Source of the DNA: a virus
Length of the DNA stretch: 64,000 bases
Virus genome (UHGV): UHGV-0236300
Reading direction: 5' to 3' (one strand)
In this document: one piece after another, positions 39,272 to 63,900 of the stretch
Layout of the letters: each line of letters opens with the position of its first letter
Numbering within the stretch: the stretch's first letter is position 1
Position numbers and translations under genes: made by a program
The notes under the pieces: generated by a model
Databases searched by the model: none
What the model saw: the letters and a program-made list of their open reading frames with translations, nothing else
What the model was told of the DNA's origin: nothing

Positions 39272-39508
39272 TTAGGTGCGGTATCCATCCCTACTCTCCT
39301 TTTTCTCCTTACGGGTATTCTTGTAGTAATCAACCAGACACATTATTACGATGAAGACAACCACAGGCCAAAAAGGTGCAGCAGTGATGATGGTGATAAA
39401 ATCATCAAACTTCACCCTTCGTGTAGACACGATGCATATACCTGTCAAGATTACTGCTGTTATAACAGCTACTACTAGGTAACCTATTAGCACAGCATTT
39501 ATACTCAT
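39272..39508 (-). CDS. small two-TM membrane protein with charged C-terminal tail (holin-like topology)
   Basis: Two hydrophobic segments (LIGYLVVAVITAVILTGICIV; ITAAPFWPVVVFIVIMCLV) and a Lys/Arg/Glu-rich C-terminus. Confidence 0.45.
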   Translation of the reverse strand: MSINAVLIGYLVVAVITAVILTGICIVSTRRVKFDDFITIITAAPFWPVVVFIVIMCLVDYYKNTRKEKKESRDGYRT

Positions 39509-58594: not shown

Positions 58595-59730
58595 ATTGCT
58601 CCAACATTTCTAAGAACGTTAACAAGTTTTGTTTGATCATTGAATGTTCGCTTCATATACAAACAGTCAAAAATTATACTCATCCACTGGCCTACGGAAA
58701 TCCTACGGTCGATACCATTGAAATCAGTATACTTAACGGCACCTTTCGGAAACCATTTTTTATACTGATCAATAATTGCTAACCACATCTCTTTCGGTGT
58801 GCTGCACTGAGACAGTAAGGAGAATGCAGATGCATCTCCAAACTTTCCTTTACCAATAAGCCCTTGGTAAGGCTTAATATTGTCAGCCGAGTCACCACAC
58901 AGCATTTGATAACCGAAGAACAACATTCCATACCCACCAACATCGCCGTTTGGTTTCATGAATATGTTACCCATACCGTTATCAATGAGCATAGGTGTCT
59001 CTCTTACAAAATCACCTTTATCGTTCCTCATCGGATCGAATACAAGCCCAGGAAGTGTTCGCTGGTCCTTATCTATAGAGATAATAAACTTGTTGAACTT
59101 TCCTGTTTTCTGGTAGTGGTTCCAACCTTCAAATTGCTGGATAGCTAACCAGTCGTCAGCTTCAATACCGTTGATCACTTGAGCGTTATATTGCTTTTGT
59201 AGATACTGTCTTGCATCTTCAAGCAACAGTGGTCGAAGAGTATTGTTACGGTTGGCTTTATATCGTTCCGGCATGGGAAGATCTAGTCTGAAATTGCCTG
59301 TTCCTCCAAGCACCCCTACGCACCGATCTTCAGGAATACCGAGATAGTTAAGGACTGCATTAGCTTTACACTTAATTGTGTGCAAGCAGTTCTCTACAGG
59401 ATCAGGGGTTTGGATATCCAAGACATCAAAATCTTCGCGTGTCCACGGAATAAACTCCTTGCCAGCTTTTTTACATGCAGCTTCACGGTTGGTGTTCTCA
59501 GCCTTTAACCAACCGCCAACTGCGTTCTTCTGCCTCCCCCAAAATTCTGTTCGTGTTTTAAACACCTTCTTACGTCCGGAGGCTTTATGTGTTACCTCAA
59601 TTGTCCTTTTTTCACAACTTGCTGCAGCTTGATATGCAACCTGATCGAAGTCATAATAAACTATAGCGTCAGGTTCAAGAAGATCAGCTAGACAATCTAT
59701 AGACTCAATAAGTGGATATTCTCTACTCAA
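58591..59730 (-). CDS. 5'-3' exonuclease / flap endonuclease (FEN family)
   Basis: LCGDSADNIKPYQGLIGKGKFGDASAFSLL parallels the Pol I 5'-nuclease motif GDSSDNIPGVPGIGEKTA..LL. Confidence 0.7.
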   Translation of the reverse strand: MSREYPLIESIDCLADLLEPDAIVYYDFDQVAYQAAASCEKRTIEVTHKASGRKKVFKTRTEFWGRQKNAVGGWLKAENTNREAACKKAGKEFIPWTREDFDVLDIQTPDPVENCLHTIKCKANAVLNYLGIPEDRCVGVLGGTGNFRLDLPMPERYKANRNNTLRPLLLEDARQYLQKQYNAQVINGIEADDWLAIQQFEGWNHYQKTGKFNKFIISIDKDQRTLPGLVFDPMRNDKGDFVRETPMLIDNGMGNIFMKPNGDVGGYGMLFFGYQMLCGDSADNIKPYQGLIGKGKFGDASAFSLLSQCSTPKEMWLAIIDQYKKWFPKGAVKYTDFNGIDRRISVGQWMSIIFDCLYMKRTFNDQTKLVNVLRNVGAI

Positions 59731-60031
59731 AGACCCTCCTGTTAGTTACTCTGCAAGATGGTTGGATGCTGTAATGGAATGCATCATCACTCTCTGCAAT
59801 AAGAGACTCAACATCCCAATATTTTTCAAAAAGGAACGGATTAGACCCCCAGTGGTGGGTTATTTTCATCAAGGAGTCTGGTATCAGATAGCCACAAATC
59901 TTAATTACATCACCAGGTTGAATGGTGTTTTCATGAAGGTTGCTTGCCTTCTTCAGGATCATACCTTTATGATTCTCGTTTGCATACAACTGGACAATAT
60001 CTTTATCTTCAACAATAAAAATTTTAAGCAT
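59723..60031 (-). CDS. hypothetical protein
   Basis: ORF; no motif. Confidence 0.5.
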   Translation of the reverse strand: MLKIFIVEDKDIVQLYANENHKGMILKKASNLHENTIQPGDVIKICGYLIPDSLMKITHHWGSNPFLFEKYWDVESLIAESDDAFHYSIQPSCRVTNRRVFE

Positions 60032-60090
60032 GTCTAGTTCTCCTAGTTTATAAATATCTGACTGATAATATCAGATTAATAGAACTTTTG

Positions 60091-60384
60091 TCAAGACTTT
60101 TTAGTCTTTCTTGGAGAGCCTTTTGTTGATCTTTTCCTTTTGTGGTAGATTCCAAGTGCGGCGTTTTCTTGGGCGCACGTTTTAACAGTTCTCAGACAAG
60201 AACTTTCAGCTTTAGGCAGGTTTAACTCCCACCAACCAAGCCAGTAAAGTTCTGATTCAGACAATTGCTCAGATTCAGCCTTCCGATACAATGATTGCAT
60301 ACCTCTGATAATGTCGTCCAGAGGCGTATCAAATACAAAAGCTGTCTTATCGAATTTCTCTTTTACAGGTTTCTTAGCCATCAA
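60091..60384 (-). CDS. hypothetical basic protein
   Basis: ORF; Lys/Arg-rich C-terminus. Confidence 0.5.
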   Translation of the reverse strand: MMAKKPVKEKFDKTAFVFDTPLDDIIRGMQSLYRKAESEQLSESELYWLGWWELNLPKAESSCLRTVKTCAQENAALGIYHKRKRSTKGSPRKTKKS

Positions 60385-60838
60385 GGTAACCCTCTATCCA
60401 CGAAAAGTCAGTCTTCCATTCCGGAACTTTACTAAGCTCACGCCACTCTGCAAAGCAGTCTCGGTAATACGCCTCTGCCATACCCTTGGTGATCTTATTC
60501 ACCTTAGCCAACTGATTAACTGCCTGAGCATACTTTCCACGGATATTTGCTAACCCAGGATGCACCGATGTGTGACAATCTGGGCACAACGCTATCAGTC
60601 CGACAAGCCGGATCACTCCCTCTTCGAAAGTGTAAAGTTCATGACACTCCACCGGATGTTTGCTGCCTTTACCGCCGCACACCTCACAAGTATAGTTGGC
60701 TTCTCTGTAGCACTTCTTACGGATCTTATCCCACTCACTCTTCTTCACAGCGTTTCGGAGATTATTATACCAAGCTGTCTCTGGGATCAGCTGTACAATA
60801 AGCCTGCGTTCAGACTTCATTAAACGTCCGTCTTCCAC
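60374..60838 (-). CDS. zinc-binding protein, possible HNH-like nuclease fold
   Basis: CEVCGG...HPVECHELY...LCPDCH cysteine/histidine spacing reminiscent of zinc-bound HNH motifs. Confidence 0.4.
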   Translation of the reverse strand: MEDGRLMKSERRLIVQLIPETAWYNNLRNAVKKSEWDKIRKKCYREANYTCEVCGGKGSKHPVECHELYTFEEGVIRLVGLIALCPDCHTSVHPGLANIRGKYAQAVNQLAKVNKITKGMAEAYYRDCFAEWRELSKVPEWKTDFSWIEGYLDG

Positions 60839-60847
60839 GTATCCTCC

Positions 60848-61054
60848 TCATTCAAAGAAATGGGTGCGAGGGCAGGAACCTGCCTCGCCTTGTTTCACAA
60901 GCTCGTAGAGCTCACCTTGGCTTGTCTCATAAAGGCAAATACGTTTACCATTGTCCCGATATACATCCACAAGATACGCTGTTTCACCTGCAAACACGAC
61001 ACCACAGGCAAGGCATGCTGCCATGAACAAAATTGCCAACAGAAAATCTTTCAT
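60848..61054 (-). CDS. small secreted or lipoprotein-like Cys-containing protein
   Basis: N-terminal signal-like FLLAILFMAACLACGVVFAG; immediately downstream of the endolysin. Confidence 0.5.
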   Translation of the reverse strand: MKDFLLAILFMAACLACGVVFAGETAYLVDVYRDNGKRICLYETSQGELYELVKQGEAGSCPRTHFFE

Positions 61055-61117
61055 GGTTAAACCCTCTTGAGTACTTTATGAGGTAACAATACCACATCCA
61101 TGTGGTCATGTCAATGA

Positions 61118-61588
61118 CTAATCTAGGACAACACCGCCTGACTTTTTAAACACCTCGATCAACTTTTCGATCTTCTGTTCGTGCTGACCATACCCTGCAC
61201 CAGGAAGGCTTGCCCATCGGGATCTGCAAAGATGGATGGCCTGATGAATACGACCTTCATCAATATCATCGAGCGCCTTGCACTCACGGATCAATTGTAG
61301 TGCGATCTTATCCTGACTGGCAGGGCCAAAATCTGGTAATCCTAACTGTTTCATATAGTGTTTAGCAAACTTCTCCAAAACTTGGTAGCGACCCGCAGCA
61401 GAGGAGGTAAGTTTAGCATTTAGCTTAACGTACACACCTGGATGCTTACTGTAATCGCTAAACAGCTTGCCACCGACTATGACATCATAGCCACGATCCT
61501 TGGTAGGTTGTCTACCATTATCTGTGCCTTCTGAATATGCGATCATATCCAAGAAAGCTTTTCGTTGAACATTTTTATCAAGTTTCAT
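61118..61588 (-). CDS. endolysin, lambda R-like lytic transglycosylase
   Basis: NVQRKAFLDMIAYSEGTDNGRQPTKDRGYDVIVGG...GRYQVL...WASLPGAGYGQHE is near-collinear with lambda R, including the catalytic Glu in SEGTD. Confidence 0.9.
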   Translation of the reverse strand: MKLDKNVQRKAFLDMIAYSEGTDNGRQPTKDRGYDVIVGGKLFSDYSKHPGVYVKLNAKLTSSAAGRYQVLEKFAKHYMKQLGLPDFGPASQDKIALQLIRECKALDDIDEGRIHQAIHLCRSRWASLPGAGYGQHEQKIEKLIEVFKKSGGVVLD

Positions 61589-61712
61589 TTTTCATACTCT
61601 CCAGTTTACTCATAACTAACCAGATCAACAACACTGCATAATGTGGTTATGCAGGGGCCAATTGAAAAACCATCATTCAATTGGCTACCGTTATCTACTG
61701 AACATCCCTACA

Positions 61713-62996
61713 TTATTCCAGCACCTCCCAAGTGTCTGGGTTAACATTTCGGACACAGATGCCGACAGGGAATTGGTAGTTGTTGTCTTCTGTCCTTGCT
61801 TGATATTTGAAGGTGACAAACTTGCCGATCATTTCCTGCATCCTGTCATAGCTGCGCTCCTCGTGCGTACCTTTCATCTTCATTTTAACAACGATACCTT
61901 CCTTGTCAACACAGATAAGAACACCTTCATCATTCTTATCTTTCTCAACGTCAATAACTTTCACCTCAGCATCGTTGAACTTTTTCCATTTCAATGCTTC
62001 GGATGTTCGCTGACCGTATTCGTATTTACCACAGAAGTTACGCATGATAGTACCTTCATATCCTTCGGACATGAATACACCAACAGATTCTTCGCAATGA
62101 TCAACTGTGTACGCAAGCTCTGCGTCAACAACCTTGATATTGTCAAGCATCAGAGTGGCAATGGTATCTTCTGCATCCATGAGATCCTTGCATCGTCCAG
62201 ATTCTGTTTCCGGATCCCACCATACCTTGTCACTAGGGATGTCGAAAATATGATACTCTAAGTCATAGCTACAGTACCCTCCGTAACGCAAATCATCACG
62301 AACAGGCTCAACATCAACAGGAATATCTACCTTATTGAAGTTTTTGTATGTTGATAAGCCTGCCTTAATTGCGGCATGACGGCGTTTTTTATCTGCCTCG
62401 TAGTCTTTATCGATCTCGGCCTGAATCTCTTCCTGTGTGCGCCACCGTTTAGCAAGAGACACTATTTTCTGCAGAGGCAGACCATGAATATAGATCTCTC
62501 CGTCGAGCTGTTTAATCCCGGTGGTGAAGTGGAAAGAACGAAGTTGCTCCAGAAGCTTTCCTTGAATAGGGTAGGACTTATTACCACGGGAAATAAATTT
62601 AGGCTCACCGTTTTGGAAAACAACCAGTAGACGAAGGCCATCTAACTTACGCAAGATCCAGCAAGGCAATTTAAGTGCCTTTCCACGCTTCAGGTAGTCA
62701 TGCACCAGCATGGGTAAAAGGTCAACACCCTGCTCGCAATCTTCCATATTTTCAACATACCCCAGACGGACTTGTTTTTCCCACTTACTGATCGCTTCCA
62801 GCTCAGCCTGTTGCTCAGCTGTAGTTTCATTGGCACGACCCACGTTCTTAGGTGTGCAGATCGTCTCTTTGTATTGCAGTTTACCATCAAGCTTGCCAAA
62901 CTCTACGATAACCTTATCACCATCCGTGAATACTTTCCACTGTTGGTAGCTGCCATCTTTGTTCAGTGCGTACAGTGTTGTTTTAATCTGATGCAT
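61713..62996 (-). CDS. ATP-dependent DNA ligase
   Basis: Adenylation motif I KLDGLR (KxDGxR), motif IV-like EGTIMR, motif V-like KWKKF. Confidence 0.8.
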   Translation of the reverse strand: MHQIKTTLYALNKDGSYQQWKVFTDGDKVIVEFGKLDGKLQYKETICTPKNVGRANETTAEQQAELEAISKWEKQVRLGYVENMEDCEQGVDLLPMLVHDYLKRGKALKLPCWILRKLDGLRLLVVFQNGEPKFISRGNKSYPIQGKLLEQLRSFHFTTGIKQLDGEIYIHGLPLQKIVSLAKRWRTQEEIQAEIDKDYEADKKRRHAAIKAGLSTYKNFNKVDIPVDVEPVRDDLRYGGYCSYDLEYHIFDIPSDKVWWDPETESGRCKDLMDAEDTIATLMLDNIKVVDAELAYTVDHCEESVGVFMSEGYEGTIMRNFCGKYEYGQRTSEALKWKKFNDAEVKVIDVEKDKNDEGVLICVDKEGIVVKMKMKGTHEERSYDRMQEMIGKFVTFKYQARTEDNNYQFPVGICVRNVNPDTWEVLE

Positions 62997-63265
62997 TACT
63001 CAGCCTCTTCCTTAAAAATTTTAAACATCTCTTCTTTGCTCATTACCAACCAGTCTCCCATAAAGTCAACTAACCAATCCCCTTGGTACAAGACCAGGTT
63101 ACCAAACGGCTCGACAAGCTCACACATGCGGAGAATATCTCTGGTCCGAACAGGTGACGGTGTAAACACACCTGTATCAATCCACCGTTGCAGATCAGAT
63201 ACTGATGAAGAGCTTCCGTCAAACTGGTGTGCTTCTACAGGTTTAGCAAGATTAAATAACGGCAT
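62996..63265 (-). CDS. hypothetical protein
   Basis: ORF coupled to the ligase gene. Confidence 0.5.
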   Translation of the reverse strand: MPLFNLAKPVEAHQFDGSSSSVSDLQRWIDTGVFTPSPVRTRDILRMCELVEPFGNLVLYQGDWLVDFMGDWLVMSKEEMFKIFKEEAE

Positions 63266-63560
63266 TGCAGTCCTCCTTCTCTAATAGGTCTTTTATCGGG
63301 TAAACAAGTAGGTGTGGATCGTAATAATTTATAGTTTTATTCTGCCACACTATGAACTTAATTACAACTAAATTTACCACATCTTTATCTCCATGCAGTC
63401 CAACACACAGATTTGTCCATACTTTGTGGTTGAATACTTTGCTGTCGATATAGATCTTAGTGTCAAACTTATCCTCTATCCTACCTATAAGTTTAACCAA
63501 TTCTTTCATCTGATCCCCAAACACATCATCGTTTTCAAGATCTCTGGAGTGCTTGTACAT
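63252..63560 (-). CDS. hypothetical protein
   Basis: ORF; no motif. Confidence 0.5.
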   Translation of the reverse strand: MYKHSRDLENDDVFGDQMKELVKLIGRIEDKFDTKIYIDSKVFNHKVWTNLCVGLHGDKDVVNLVVIKFIVWQNKTINYYDPHLLVYPIKDLLEKEDCNAVI

Positions 63561-63584: not shown

Positions 63585-63618
63585 TTCCGAAACAAGTAAA
63601 GCCGGGATCGCCCCGGCT
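63585..63618 (-). terminator. candidate rho-independent terminator (minus strand)
   Basis: On the minus strand AGCCGGG-GCGAT-CCCGGCT hairpin followed by TTACTTGTTTC. Confidence 0.45.
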
Positions 63619-63624
63619 ATGTTA

Positions 63625-63900
63625 TTAAATATATTCTGTTACATCCTTGAAGCTTGAAGGCTTCATAATCTTACCTTTACTGTCGAGGAATATGATAACT
63701 TTATTTCCGTTGTAGAATTCTTCTTTAGCAACAAAACCTTCATAGCGACCATCAAAGCGTCGCTCAAGATCTTTAATCTCCAACTCGATGAGTTGTTCAG
63801 CAGGCATATCTGCACTGGCACCGTGTGAATGCCGCAGATGGTTGACACGTGCAAACTTGCTGTCATTAGATTTTAGAACCTTCCGCATCATCCCGCACAC
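63625..63900 (-). CDS. hypothetical protein
   Basis: ORF; upstream region runs to the window edge. Confidence 0.5.
   Translation of the reverse strand: MCGMMRKVLKSNDSKFARVNHLRHSHGASADMPAEQLIELEIKDLERRFDGRYEGFVAKEEFYNGNKVIIFLDSKGKIMKPSSFKDVTEYI

Follow-up and report, generated by a model that had tools for sequence, protein, structure and literature searches.

The window examined here, a 64,000-nt stretch of phage DNA, belongs to a Vequintavirus, that is, an rV5-like myophage infecting E. coli. Its endolysin locus comprises the gene for a 156-aa lambda R-type (GH104-like) endolysin (61118-61588, minus strand; the orthologue of rV5 gp89 and bas54_0202), whose upstream neighbour is a ligase gene (61713-62996). 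Between the two lies a 124-nt spacer (61589-61712, minus) with two hairpins. The endolysin gene is followed by a small ORF of 68 aa (60848-61054, minus; rV5 gp90, PHROG 4641) and by an HNH endonuclease gene (60374-60838, minus; rV5 gp91), which matches phrog_5200 at 2e-72.

The locus is 94-97% identical to its counterparts in over 100 Vequintavirus genomes, all of which share its gene order, and the same layout recurs in more than 120 GenBank phages. This order, namely gp88 ligase, gp89 lysin, gp90 and gp91 HNH, was described in rV5 (Kropinski et al. 2013, PMC3606486), and the gene order, gene sizes and spacer lengths of the window are those of rV5 gp88-gp91, LL12 gp89-gp92 and Bas54 bas54_0200-0203, with the small ORF being 97-100% identical to its counterparts in these phages. 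Thus, the locus is an already known, published and ordinary rV5-type endolysin region, and because it has the published rV5 arrangement, the layout is not atypical, contrary to what the initial annotation of this DNA had held. Pattern and protein scans of IMG/VR gave few rV5-like contigs, and GenBank records were used for the comparisons. As a separate observation, the endolysin locus is a hotspot of HNH insertions and allele swaps.

The endolysin and the dispersed lysis genes

Residues 4-154 of the endolysin match the PDB entries 1AM7 (E = 3.2e-56) and 3D3D (E = 4.2e-56) in a phmmer search of the PDB, and the protein matches phrog_90 'endolysin' at 5e-55, with no match in Pfam-A at E <= 0.01. 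The SEGT(D) motif is kept in the alignment with the lambda lysozyme (AYSEGTDNGRQ vs AWSEGTDNGRQ), and its aligned Glu is what we take to be the catalytic residue of lambda R. The likeness to lambda R proposed from the sequence at the outset is thereby confirmed. The N-terminus (MKLDKNVQRKAFLDMIAYSEG) is hydrophilic and has no hydrophobic stretch, signal or SAR segment. By its sequence, then, the protein is a soluble lambda R-type (GH104-like) lytic transglycosylase of the holin-dependent kind. Its 97%-identical orthologue, bas54_0202, is essential: 0 of its 24 TA sites received an insertion (published Bas54 Tn-seq).

The endolysin gene would be the last of the ligase transcription unit, within the block of replication genes. 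As the protein has no export signal, it would build up in the cytoplasm until a membrane-lesion protein encoded elsewhere lets it out; with release in the hands of proteins encoded elsewhere, we infer that the timing of lysis would thus be set post-translationally and not at the endolysin locus. The immediate neighbours, namely the ligase, the small ORF and the HNH gene, include no holin, spanin or Rz/Rz1, and on this point the initial annotation was right. The answer to how the cytoplasmic endolysin reaches the wall is not at the endolysin locus.

A dispersed lysis-gene layout has been published for rV5, LL12 and CB7 (Kongari 2018; CB7 paper; rV5 PMC3606486), with spanins annotated beside TerL (LL12 gp65/66; Kongari 2018), and the spanin genes of Bas54 received no transposon insertions (published Tn-seq). 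The outer membrane would be handled by this i-/o-spanin pair beside the terminase gene, outside the window. As for the holin, the rV5 paper (PMC3606486) names gp129 as a 'putative holin', and in the window it corresponds to a 78-aa two-TMD protein with a basic C-terminus, taken from the ORF list (39272-39508, minus). The Bas54 gene bas54_0164, which we paired with rV5 gp129 by syntenic position, its length of 237 nt and gene order, tolerates insertions at 17 of its 19 TA sites (published Tn-seq); a gp129-type protein is therefore not a proven holin. Both annotated 'putative holins' of the Vequintavirus group are dispensable in the published Tn-seq, in which the endolysin is essential and the spanin genes are insertion-free; Bas54 has 15 essential genes that lack an annotation.

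The small protein gp90 and its predicted export

The small ORF begins MKDFLLAILFMAACLACGVVFAG, is hydrophobic over residues 4-22 and has Cys at positions 14, 17, 40 and 61, so that the signal-like N-terminus and the four cysteines first noted in the 60848-61054 ORF are both present. Its match to phrog_4641 is at 4e-28, and PHROG 4641 takes in each of the 14 family members tested; the family is found in 229 Vequintavirinae-like phage records from several genera. An n-h-c signal layout is common to the family, with the sequence of the hydrophobic core itself variable, and for 12 of the 14 members a regular expression places an AXA-type site directly ahead of the conserved start of the mature protein, the residues around -3/-1 reading VFA, SFA, TFA, VRS, AWA, AWS, AQA, AEA or AHA. 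The expression missed the site in P0019 and mis-placed it in P0017, the most distant homologues, which are known from short contigs with little gene context. The depositor of the PBES 02 record annotated a sig_peptide on its gp90 homologue. From these features gp90 is predicted to be Sec-exported, processed by SPase I after Ala22 (between VFA and GE) and periplasmic, with a signal peptide of residues 1-22 (60989-61054, minus) and a predicted periplasmic mature domain of 46 aa (60851-60988, minus).

The mature part has a dN/dS of ~0.04-0.05, with dS saturated, and the signal part evolves faster; mature gp90 is under strong purifying selection. An AF2 model gives a four-stranded beta-sheet (pLDDT 82), and the mature protein is probably, on this model, a 46-aa beta-sheet mini-protein with a Cys40-Cys61 disulfide. 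Its conserved surface includes D30, Y32, Y42 and a CP motif. Searches of Pfam-A and NCBIfam returned only noise at E > 0.01, sequence and profile searches of the PDB returned nothing, and gp90 has no sequence or fold likeness to any known protein.

The distribution of the cysteines bears on the proposal that the small protein is a lipoprotein or spanin-like component. Cys40 and Cys61 are invariant, and Cys14 and Cys17 are missing from most homologues; seven of the 14 members lack any Cys ahead of the mature domain, and where one is present its position is not conserved. The window allele has a relaxed lipobox-like MAAC ending at Cys14, with Met rather than Leu/Val/Ile at -3, and such a Cys, again with Met at -3, is confined to the three closest of the 14 members. 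Because the two N-terminal cysteines are not conserved, gp90 is not a lipoprotein or spanin, and the conserved SPase I-type site likewise speaks against that proposal. Several specific lysis roles were considered and rejected. An o-spanin would have a conserved lipobox Cys and an adjacent, overlapping or embedded i-spanin, and gp90 has neither. A u-spanin of the T1 gp11 type is contradicted by the missing C-terminal TMD (hydropathy is <= 0 in all 19-residue windows past residue 20) and by the polar C-terminus (...SCPRTHFFE). A holin is contradicted by a hydrophobic segment that is the least conserved part and ends at an AXA-type site, by a nearly invariant soluble part and by the non-essential orthologue.

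That orthologue in Bas54, 97% identical, was hit at 7 of its 8 TA sites and is non-essential, and no conditional phenotype was recorded for it (log2FC +0.5, adjusted p = 1; published Bas54 Tn-seq). The initial annotation had set a lysis role against a product that is cytoplasmic and dispensable: the dispensability stands, whereas the cytoplasmic location does not, the protein being predicted to reside in the periplasm. In the scheme that we favour, gp90 would be dispensable for plaque formation and would be neither lipoprotein, spanin nor holin.

The small ORF is preceded by a sigma-70 promoter, P090 (61086-61114, minus; TTGACA-17-TATTGT with an extended -10 TG), which scores 10/12 plus the TG in a promoter scan; the identical site is listed as P090 in Table S4 of the rV5 paper (PMC3606486). 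All 16 loci from three diverged clades retain the -35 TTGACA, the spacing of 17 nt and the TGn-10, despite differing in spacer sequence, and consensus promoters also lie upstream of the gp90 homologues of SSBI34, KB57 and Mydo. The gp90 gene would begin a transcription unit of its own, driven by this host-type sigma-70 promoter. The HNH gene downstream of the small ORF is within one P090 unit with it, and its orthologue in Bas54 is non-essential (published Tn-seq). The 6-bp palindrome CCACAT-GG-ATGTGG in the P090 spacer was considered as an operator and rejected, being perfect only in the window and reading CCACACGGACGTGG elsewhere. A further sigma-70-like site in the 3' end of the ligase gene (61909->61882) is conserved in close relatives, for which coding constraint could equally account.

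The most serious alternative for gp90 is that it is functionally coupled to the endolysin, either as an inhibitor of, or 'immunity' factor against, the GH104 enzyme in the periplasm, preventing damage from leaked or external endolysin until the holin triggers, or as an antiholin-like regulator of timing. The two genes are 62-68 nt apart in every Vequintavirus locus (63 nt in the window) and in a rearranged sister clade, so that their adjacency survives a rearrangement of gene order between two clades, although the short distance could equally account for this. A small, periplasmic, probably disulfide-bonded protein with the conserved surface described above would suit such a role, and non-essentiality in the laboratory is what one would expect of a modulator of lysis timing. 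However, the gp90 family also occurs in Vequintavirinae genera without an R-like endolysin in the vicinity: none is found within 3-4 kb of the homologue in PBES 02, KB57, Mydo, Kashira and SSBI34, and endolysin types have been reported to differ between the genera (CB7 paper). Further, in contig L013 the endolysin has been swapped for a 51%-identical allele and gp90 is 100% identical; the gp90 gene has its own promoter and is not co-transcribed; and gp90 resembles neither Ivy, PliC/MliC, PliG nor T4 RI in sequence or fold. We therefore regard coupling as unlikely and prefer a gp90 family that would be conserved throughout the Vequintavirinae with or without a neighbouring R-type endolysin.

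The hairpins and the ligase-endolysin spacer

The spacer holds a distal hairpin, CCAATTGAA-N9-TTCAATTGG (61658-61684, minus; 9-bp stem, 9-nt loop, -8.5 kcal/mol), and a proximal one, CTGCATAA-N5-TTATGCAG (61634-61654, minus; 8-bp stem, 5-nt loop, -7.4 kcal/mol), followed by TGTTGTTG. The two perfect inverted repeats recorded in the initial annotation are therefore real, save that the distal loop is of 9 nt and not N10. Perfect hairpins with stems of 8 bp or longer and 3-12 nt loops number 22 in the window, where first-order Markov simulations give 8.7 +/- 2.7; hence, two of them in one 124-nt spacer are unlikely under this null. A Poisson estimate for two hairpins in this pre-specified spacer is ~1e-4, and a perfect 9-bp stem would arise by chance in a spacer of such size with an estimated frequency of ~0.004. 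The entire spacer folds no better than shuffled versions of itself (z = -0.87).

An origin for these repeats is suggested by contig L013, which has an intact 164-aa ORF at the position of the spacer, with homologues annotated as VUT family or 6-TMD membrane proteins. In the spacers, tblastn finds N-terminal (residues 10-27) and C-terminal (residues 144-164) remnants of this protein that lie in different reading frames and are interrupted by stops, and the window keeps the C-terminal remnant AVLLIWLVMSKLESMKN. As read from these alignments, the ligase-endolysin spacer is the decayed remnant of a deleted gene for a VUT-type multi-pass membrane protein. Relative to FV3, C12 and JES2013, the window has a 28-nt deletion that joins CTGCATA to CCACATTATGCAG and forms the proximal repeat; the perfect proximal repeat would thus have been created by a further deletion within the VUT scar. 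The spacer so documents the decay of a VUT-type transporter gene to a 124-nt scar. We also considered the L013 membrane protein, which lies upstream of the endolysin and overlaps its start, as a lost holin; this was rejected, since its homologues, of the VUT/6-TMD type, have methyltransferase and nin-region early genes as neighbours.

Comparison of relatives provides little sign that the pairing has been kept. Both repeats are perfect in the window allele and have 1-3 mismatches in rV5, LL12 and Bas54. The proximal hairpin is perfect only in the window among the 13 genomes compared, with half of the relatives unpaired at pair 3 and a single G-C to A-T double change seen in its stem. The sequence of the distal stem is kept in most relatives; four of its nine pairs depart, by unpaired cells only and with no compensatory change among the 13 genomes. 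The covariation score over these genomes is 0.051 vs 0.049 in shuffles, with 288 of 500 shuffles reaching it. More generally, most relatives have mismatches in the hairpins, and sister clades lack them or have another in their place: in the L008 clade the spacer is 55 nt long and forms a different hairpin, and in the L005 clade there is none, the endolysin following directly after another gene.

The initial annotation had suggested that the repeats serve as a terminator or operator controlling the timing of lysis-gene expression. As in the Rho-independent terminators of rV5 (Table S4), the proximal hairpin is a stem-loop with a T-rich tract after a stop codon, and a scan flags it with TGTTGTTG as terminator-like, downstream of a stop codon. 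However, the predicted rV5 terminators are GC-rich, have true T-runs and range from -11.5 to -24.7 kcal/mol, with none listed between gp88 and gp89 (Table S4, PMC3606486); the proximal hairpin is weaker, AT-rich (3 of 8 pairs are G-C), devoid of covariation and unlisted, and its tail has five T in 8 nt. The distal hairpin has no T-tract. With weak stems, few G-C pairs, no covariation and pair-breaking changes, an intrinsic terminator was rejected, and the suggested terminator or operator function does not hold. Repeated operator copies were likewise sought and there are none in the window, CCAATTGAA not being repeated beyond the hairpin. Two other candidates fared no better: CTGCATAA as a phage-wide motif (12 copies vs 2.8 expected) was rejected as the remaining copies fall within unrelated coding regions and have no flanks in common, and TGGTTAGTTA, which agrees with the rV5 late promoter (TggTAaAAtA) at 7 of 10 positions, was rejected as its TGG varies (GGG, GTG, TGT). 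No transcript map was found in the literature for any Vequintavirus.

A rather different alternative is that the pseudogene remnant supplied a functional RNA element, with the hairpins acting, for example, as an mRNA stabiliser or as a processing site for RNase III or RNase E, and so uncoupling the endolysin and ligase mRNAs. The retention of the perfect 9-bp distal stem sequence in most relatives is consistent with this, as is the L008/L011 clade, in which an analogous hairpin followed by TTGTTGTT stands immediately ahead of the endolysin RBS; so too is the tolerance of insertions in the ligase with an essential endolysin downstream, with which read-out from the transposon is equally compatible. 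Yet substitutions break pairs with no covariation, the whole-spacer fold is unexceptional, the L005 clade does without a hairpin, in HMD-6 and L007 an inserted HNH gene separates the spacer from the endolysin, and a search of 60700-62000 against Rfam found nothing relevant. We hold such an element to be quite improbable. The analogous hairpin of the L008/L011 clade leaves room for a possible small role at the RNA level, for instance in partial termination or in stabilising 3' or 5' ends. On the reading of the hairpins that we prefer, they would not be maintained as structures and would at most slightly attenuate or stabilise the read-through transcript of the ligase and endolysin; they are probably not a lysis-timing switch.

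The weakest reading is the original combined one, in which gp90 is a lipoprotein or spanin-like substitute for Rz/Rz1 and the paired hairpins are a terminator or operator timing the endolysin; it draws on the MAAC of the window allele, the terminator-like flag on the proximal hairpin with its TGTTGTTG tail and a window with no spanin or holin beside the endolysin, but is extremely improbable, as that Cys is absent from most members and has Met at -3, gp90 has no C-terminal TMD or adjacent i-spanin, genuine spanins lie elsewhere and are hit-free in Tn-seq while gp90 is dispensable, and the hairpins are weak, mismatched in relatives, without covariation, set in a pseudogene remnant and unaccompanied by repeated operator copies in the window.

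The locus in relation to known phage systems

Taken as a whole, we consider it likely that this is an ordinary rV5 locus in which the small ORF encodes a secreted, dispensable mini-protein with no part in lysis and the hairpins are unmaintained structures in a remnant. A normal Vequintavirus endolysin locus would then combine three unrelated things adjacent by chance, namely the endolysin, the 68-aa gene and the two hairpins. The locus matters little for the biology of lysis, and the regulatory and spanin roles proposed for it do not hold. What it does offer is a description of PHROG 4641 as a family of predicted Sec-secreted beta mini-proteins with two Cys, under strong purifying selection throughout a phage subfamily and yet dispensable in the laboratory, a profile characteristic of accessory factors for exclusion or the host interface. 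By analogy with T4 Spackle, gp90 might be an accessory factor acting at the envelope, which protects against superinfection or lysis from without via a periplasm-exposed target; we offer this as a tentative possibility. It is likewise rather unlikely that the family is an unrecognised class of periplasmic effectors, concerned with envelope protection or with modulation of peptidoglycan hydrolases, possibly including the adjacent transglycosylase.

With regard to lambda, the endolysin is homologous to R over its full length, equal to it in size and likewise soluble, with the catalytic Glu in a conserved SEGTD and no signal or SAR segment. In contrast to R, it stands outside any S-R-Rz/Rz1 cassette and sits in a block of replication genes, with the spanins ~10 kb away. 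The small ORF shares with the Rz1 o-spanins and T1 gp11 u-spanins its small size, an N-terminal export signal and periplasmic Cys, but unlike them it has no conserved lipobox Cys, C-terminal TMD or i-spanin partner and is predicted to have a folded beta domain; the true spanins of the Vequintavirus group are elsewhere, contrary to an Rz1-type reading of gp90.

A parallel in logic is T4 Spackle (Sp, gene 61.3), a small protein of the periplasm that excludes superinfecting phage and inhibits the gp5 tail lysozyme. Spackle is a helical protein. Both it and gp90 are small Sec-exported products, predicted as such for gp90, of a large virulent myophage, encoded among replication or early genes and expressed from a host-type promoter, and T4 sp tolerates insertions in the same published Tn-seq study as the Bas54 orthologue of gp90. 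There is no sequence or fold similarity between the two, and gp90, which is predicted to be all-beta with one disulfide, differs from the helical Spackle, so that the resemblance is one of logic only.

Gene order and dispersed lysis partners

More than 100 GenBank genomes of Vequintavirus, the rV5-like myophages with genomes of ~136 kb, match the window at 94-97% identity across 60300-62000, and all of them have its gene order. Every gene in the 58-64 kb segment lies on the minus strand. In transcription order, an ATP-dependent DNA ligase (61713-62996) is followed by a 124-nt spacer (61589-61712), the endolysin (61118-61588), a 63-nt spacer, a 68-aa ORF (60848-61054), an HNH endonuclease (60374-60838), two small ORFs, and a 5'-3' exonuclease; the ligase-to-exonuclease genes are the counterparts of rV5 gp88-gp94. 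As the initial annotation recognized, the endolysin is lambda R-like: a match to lambda lysozyme (structures 1AM7 and 3D3D; E = 3e-56) spans its residues 4-154 and preserves the SEGTD motif, and no hydrophobic N-terminal segment was found in it.

The absence of a holin or spanin next to the endolysin, noted at first, is borne out; the layout is the known architecture of the rV5 group. The rV5 genome paper names gp89 as the lysin, finds no neighboring holin, and proposes the remote two-TMD protein gp129 instead (Kropinski et al., 2013; PMC3606486); we located the gp129 ORF at 39272-39508 on the minus strand (78 aa, two TMDs). The announcement of phage LL12 places the i-/o-spanin pair (gp66/gp65) beside the large terminase and states that a holin was not identifiable. 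The spanins are so annotated in the LL12 GenBank record as well, at a distance of ~10 kb from the endolysin, which puts them past the end of the window. The rV5 spanin family is also listed in the spanin census (Kongari, 2018), and the CB7 paper reports terminase-linked spanins likewise in rV5, PVP-SE1, and Certrevirus. The endolysin locus is, then, an ordinary arrangement that has been published before; the initial observation was correct, and its interpretation is only partly supported.

Functional evidence comes from HIDEN-SEQ transposon mapping of Bas54 (phage MaxBurger; MZ501093), a 97%-identical relative whose endolysin shares 151 of 156 residues with that of the window. The endolysin bas54_0202 is essential (0 of 24 TA sites hit), and the ligase bas54_0203 is non-essential (69/73). 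The i-/o-spanin genes show zero insertion reads in the comparison tables, and the BASEL 'putative holin' bas54_0115 tolerates insertions. The gp129-like 'holin' bas54_0164, equated with gp129 and the window ORF by identical gene order and length rather than by alignment, is non-essential (17 of 19 TA sites hit). Both annotated holin candidates thus accept insertions, unlike the essential endolysin and the insertion-free spanin genes, and neither can be taken as the true Vequintavirus holin. The endolysin would be produced by read-through from the ligase unit and would build up in the cytoplasm until freed by a holin encoded elsewhere. A strong sigma-70-like site (TTGACA-16-TAAAAT with TG, 11/12; 61882-61909, minus strand) lies inside the ligase 3' end, ~290 nt ahead of where the endolysin gene begins; close relatives share the site, but its conservation is inseparable from coding constraint.

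Endolysin alleles are mosaic (51-97% identity) between near-identical flanks, and some relatives carry HNH homing-endonuclease genes directly upstream of the endolysin (L027, the HMD-6 locus, 1667-2383; L007, 3742-4422; and L015); the locus looks like a hotspot of recombination. Separately, ~19 GenBank records of 'Campylobacter phage' (host C. jejuni, some UNVERIFIED; MG065635, MG065644, MG065654, and others, including our matches H25, H27, H28, and H179) are genomes of Vequintavirus, their identity to E. coli phages being 92-100% at this locus, and the host label is probably wrong.

Pseudogene origin of the ligase-endolysin spacer

The IMG/VR contig UViG_3300010279_000001 (L013) alone retains, at 1955-2449, an intact 164-aa ORF for a VUT-family (YhhQ-like) multi-pass membrane protein between ligase and endolysin, overlapping the endolysin start. 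Its homologues (25-36% identity) are annotated as VUT-family or 6-TMD proteins; in mEp021-like and Rogunavirinae phages they keep company with early and methyltransferase genes and are not part of lysis cassettes. Both ends of this gene are still recognizable by alignment in ordinary Vequintavirus spacers: the first 20 nt past the ligase stop align to its RBS and start region, an N-terminal remnant (VUT residues 10-27) reads FQLAPAYALMYALCNIA in FV3, and a C-terminal remnant (residues 144-164) reads CCTVLLIGYAISRLESKK in HMD-6 and AVLLIWLVMSKLESMKN in the window. As both gene ends persist in different frames with stops inside, the spacer is a deletion scar of a VUT-type gene. FV3, C12, JES2013, and HMD-6 carry 28 extra nt inside the proximal hairpin element; a further 28-nt deletion in the window's clade joined CTGCATA to CCACATTATGCAG, thereby creating the proximal inverted repeat.

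The initial annotation had suggested that two perfect inverted repeats in this spacer could act as a terminator or operator timing lysis. Both are present, the proximal as CTGCATAA-N5-TTATGCAG (61634-61654) and the distal as CCAATTGAA-N9-TTCAATTGG (61658-61684), with a loop of 9 nt, not 10. Perfect hairpins of this class number 22 in the window, and Markov simulations give 8.7 +/- 2.7, which makes the chance occurrence of two in one spacer unlikely. Their energies are weak (-7.4 and -8.5 kcal/mol), as against the 20 predicted terminators of rV5, whose stems are GC-rich with energies of -11.5 to -24.7 kcal/mol, none of them between these genes (PMC3606486). The whole spacer folds no better than its shuffles (z = -0.87), and an Rfam search gave no match for the hairpin region. 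When the spacer was aligned from 13 genomes and pairs were counted for both stems, 87% of cells were paired, yet every measure was on a par with the shuffled controls (reached in 288 of 500 shuffles). Only the window has a perfect proximal stem; pair 3 of this stem is unpaired in half of the sequences, and one G-C to A-T double change is accompanied by A.C intermediates. The distal stem varies solely by pair-breaking substitutions (navn, LL12, BP9, EdH4, C12, and JES2013). In the clade of L008 and L011 the spacer is 55 nt long and carries another hairpin, GTGCACA-ATA-TGTGCAC, with TTGTTGTT after it; the clade of L005 lacks the spacer altogether. Given weak energies, a structure that is not conserved, and a position outside the rV5 terminator list, the hairpins probably do not time lysis. 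Our conclusion is that no conserved regulatory structure is present here; the hairpins may slightly affect read-through or RNA stability.

The octamer CTGCATAA itself occurs 12 times in the window (1-64000; e.g., at 1556, 27455, 27481, and 35370) against 2.8 expected, a count reached in 0 of 100 shuffles; the contexts of these copies are unrelated and mostly coding, with no shared motif around them. Far stronger is a G+C-rich palindromic stem-loop at 63600-63618, AGCCGGGGCGATCCCGGCT, which separates ORFs 63252-63560 and 63625-63900; with a T-rich tail on either strand, it looks like a true bidirectional intrinsic terminator.

The separately promoted, dispensable small gene

The 68-aa ORF encodes a conserved, dispensable mini-protein that is predicted to be secreted. 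It belongs to PHROG 4641 (no assigned function), as do all 14 diverse relatives tested. A tblastn search with a distant member places the family in 229 records of Vequintavirinae-type phages, whose hosts include Escherichia, Klebsiella, Cronobacter, Salmonella, Pectobacterium, Enterobacter, Erwinia, Proteus, and Serratia; protein collections of 5.8 billion and 1.8 billion sequences yielded no homologue outside such phage sequences. The labels 'lysozyme' in APECc02 (KR698074, H35) and 'tail fibers protein' in SYGMH1 (MW883061, H50) look like annotation errors.

The signal-like N-terminus and four cysteines noted initially are confirmed (hydrophobic stretch 4-22; Cys 14, 17, 40, and 61). An n-h-c signal peptide is discernible by eye in 14/14 members, and in 12 of them pattern matching placed an SPase I site immediately ahead of the conserved mature N-terminus (e.g., ...VFA↓GE, AWS↓GD, AQA↓SQ, AEA↓SQ, and AHA↓GN). 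The mature part (~44-46 aa) has invariant T25, L28, D30, Y32, C40, Y42, C61, and P62, and its dN/dS between diverged clades is ~0.04-0.05 with dS saturated; protein-level change is faster in the signal part. The ORF is therefore a real gene, and purifying selection on it is strong.

Between the endolysin stop and the small ORF lies a sigma-70 promoter, TTGACA-17-TATTGT with an extended -10 TG (61114->61086), which is P090 on the rV5 promoter list (PMC3606486). In 16 loci from three diverged clades the -35 TTGACA, the 17-nt spacing, and the TGn-10 are kept while the spacer sequence differs, and consensus promoters also directly precede the SSBI34, KB57, and Mydo homologues. Hence, the small gene heads a unit driven by host RNA polymerase rather than trailing the endolysin in a shared transcript. 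A second consensus-like promoter (TTGACA-18-TATTAT with TG, 60065-60094, minus strand), the P093 of the rV5 paper, precedes a 102-aa ORF (59723-60031).

The main rival among functional readings, that the small protein modulates the adjacent transglycosylase, draws on linkage: in Vequintavirus and a sister clade (L005-L007, L010, and L014-L017), the small ORF is always preceded, at 62-68 nt, by the end of a lambda R-like endolysin, and in the sister clade the pair stays adjacent at a different gene-order position. However, homologues in the same replication-gene block of Certrevirus PBES 02, Mydovirus KB57 and Mydo, Serratia phage Kashira, and Salmonella phage SSBI34 have no R-like endolysin within 3-4 kb, and endolysin types are said to differ among these genera (CB7 paper). 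Moreover, L013 retains a 92%-identical ligase and a 100%-identical small protein around an endolysin allele of 51% identity. The family thus predates, and is separable from, adjacency to the R-type endolysin, and we regard such modulation as improbable. The lipoprotein or spanin-like reading fares worse, both as o-spanin and as u-spanin: the signal peptide suggested initially holds family-wide, whereas the lipobox is not conserved (Cys14 and Cys17 are lineage-specific in the alignments, and 7 of 14 members lack any Cys ahead of the mature domain), and C-terminal TMD and partner gene are absent. The spanin-like reading is further opposed by the Bas54 orthologue bas54_0201 (66/68 identical, both differences within the signal peptide), which is non-essential, with 7 of 8 TA sites hit and no conditional phenotype (log2FC +0.5, adjusted p = 1); the deletion proposed initially has effectively been made, and plaques still form. 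A holin is rejected as well: no part of the protein is less conserved than the hydrophobic segment, and a predicted cleavage site comes after it.

Upstream of the small-ORF homologue in the Mydovirus KB57 (L021), a gene at 2060-2950 encodes a 296-aa protein annotated 'lipoprotein', with an LTGC lipobox and by eye SPFH/HflC-type-looking, likewise envelope-targeted and in the same early block.

The small protein would be cleaved after Ala22, form a Cys40-Cys61 disulfide, and work in the periplasm. There, we tentatively suggest, as a possibility well short of an even chance, that it guards the infected cell envelope in the manner of Spackle. Like the small gene of Bas54, the T4 Spackle gene sp tolerates transposon insertions in the HIDEN-SEQ study.
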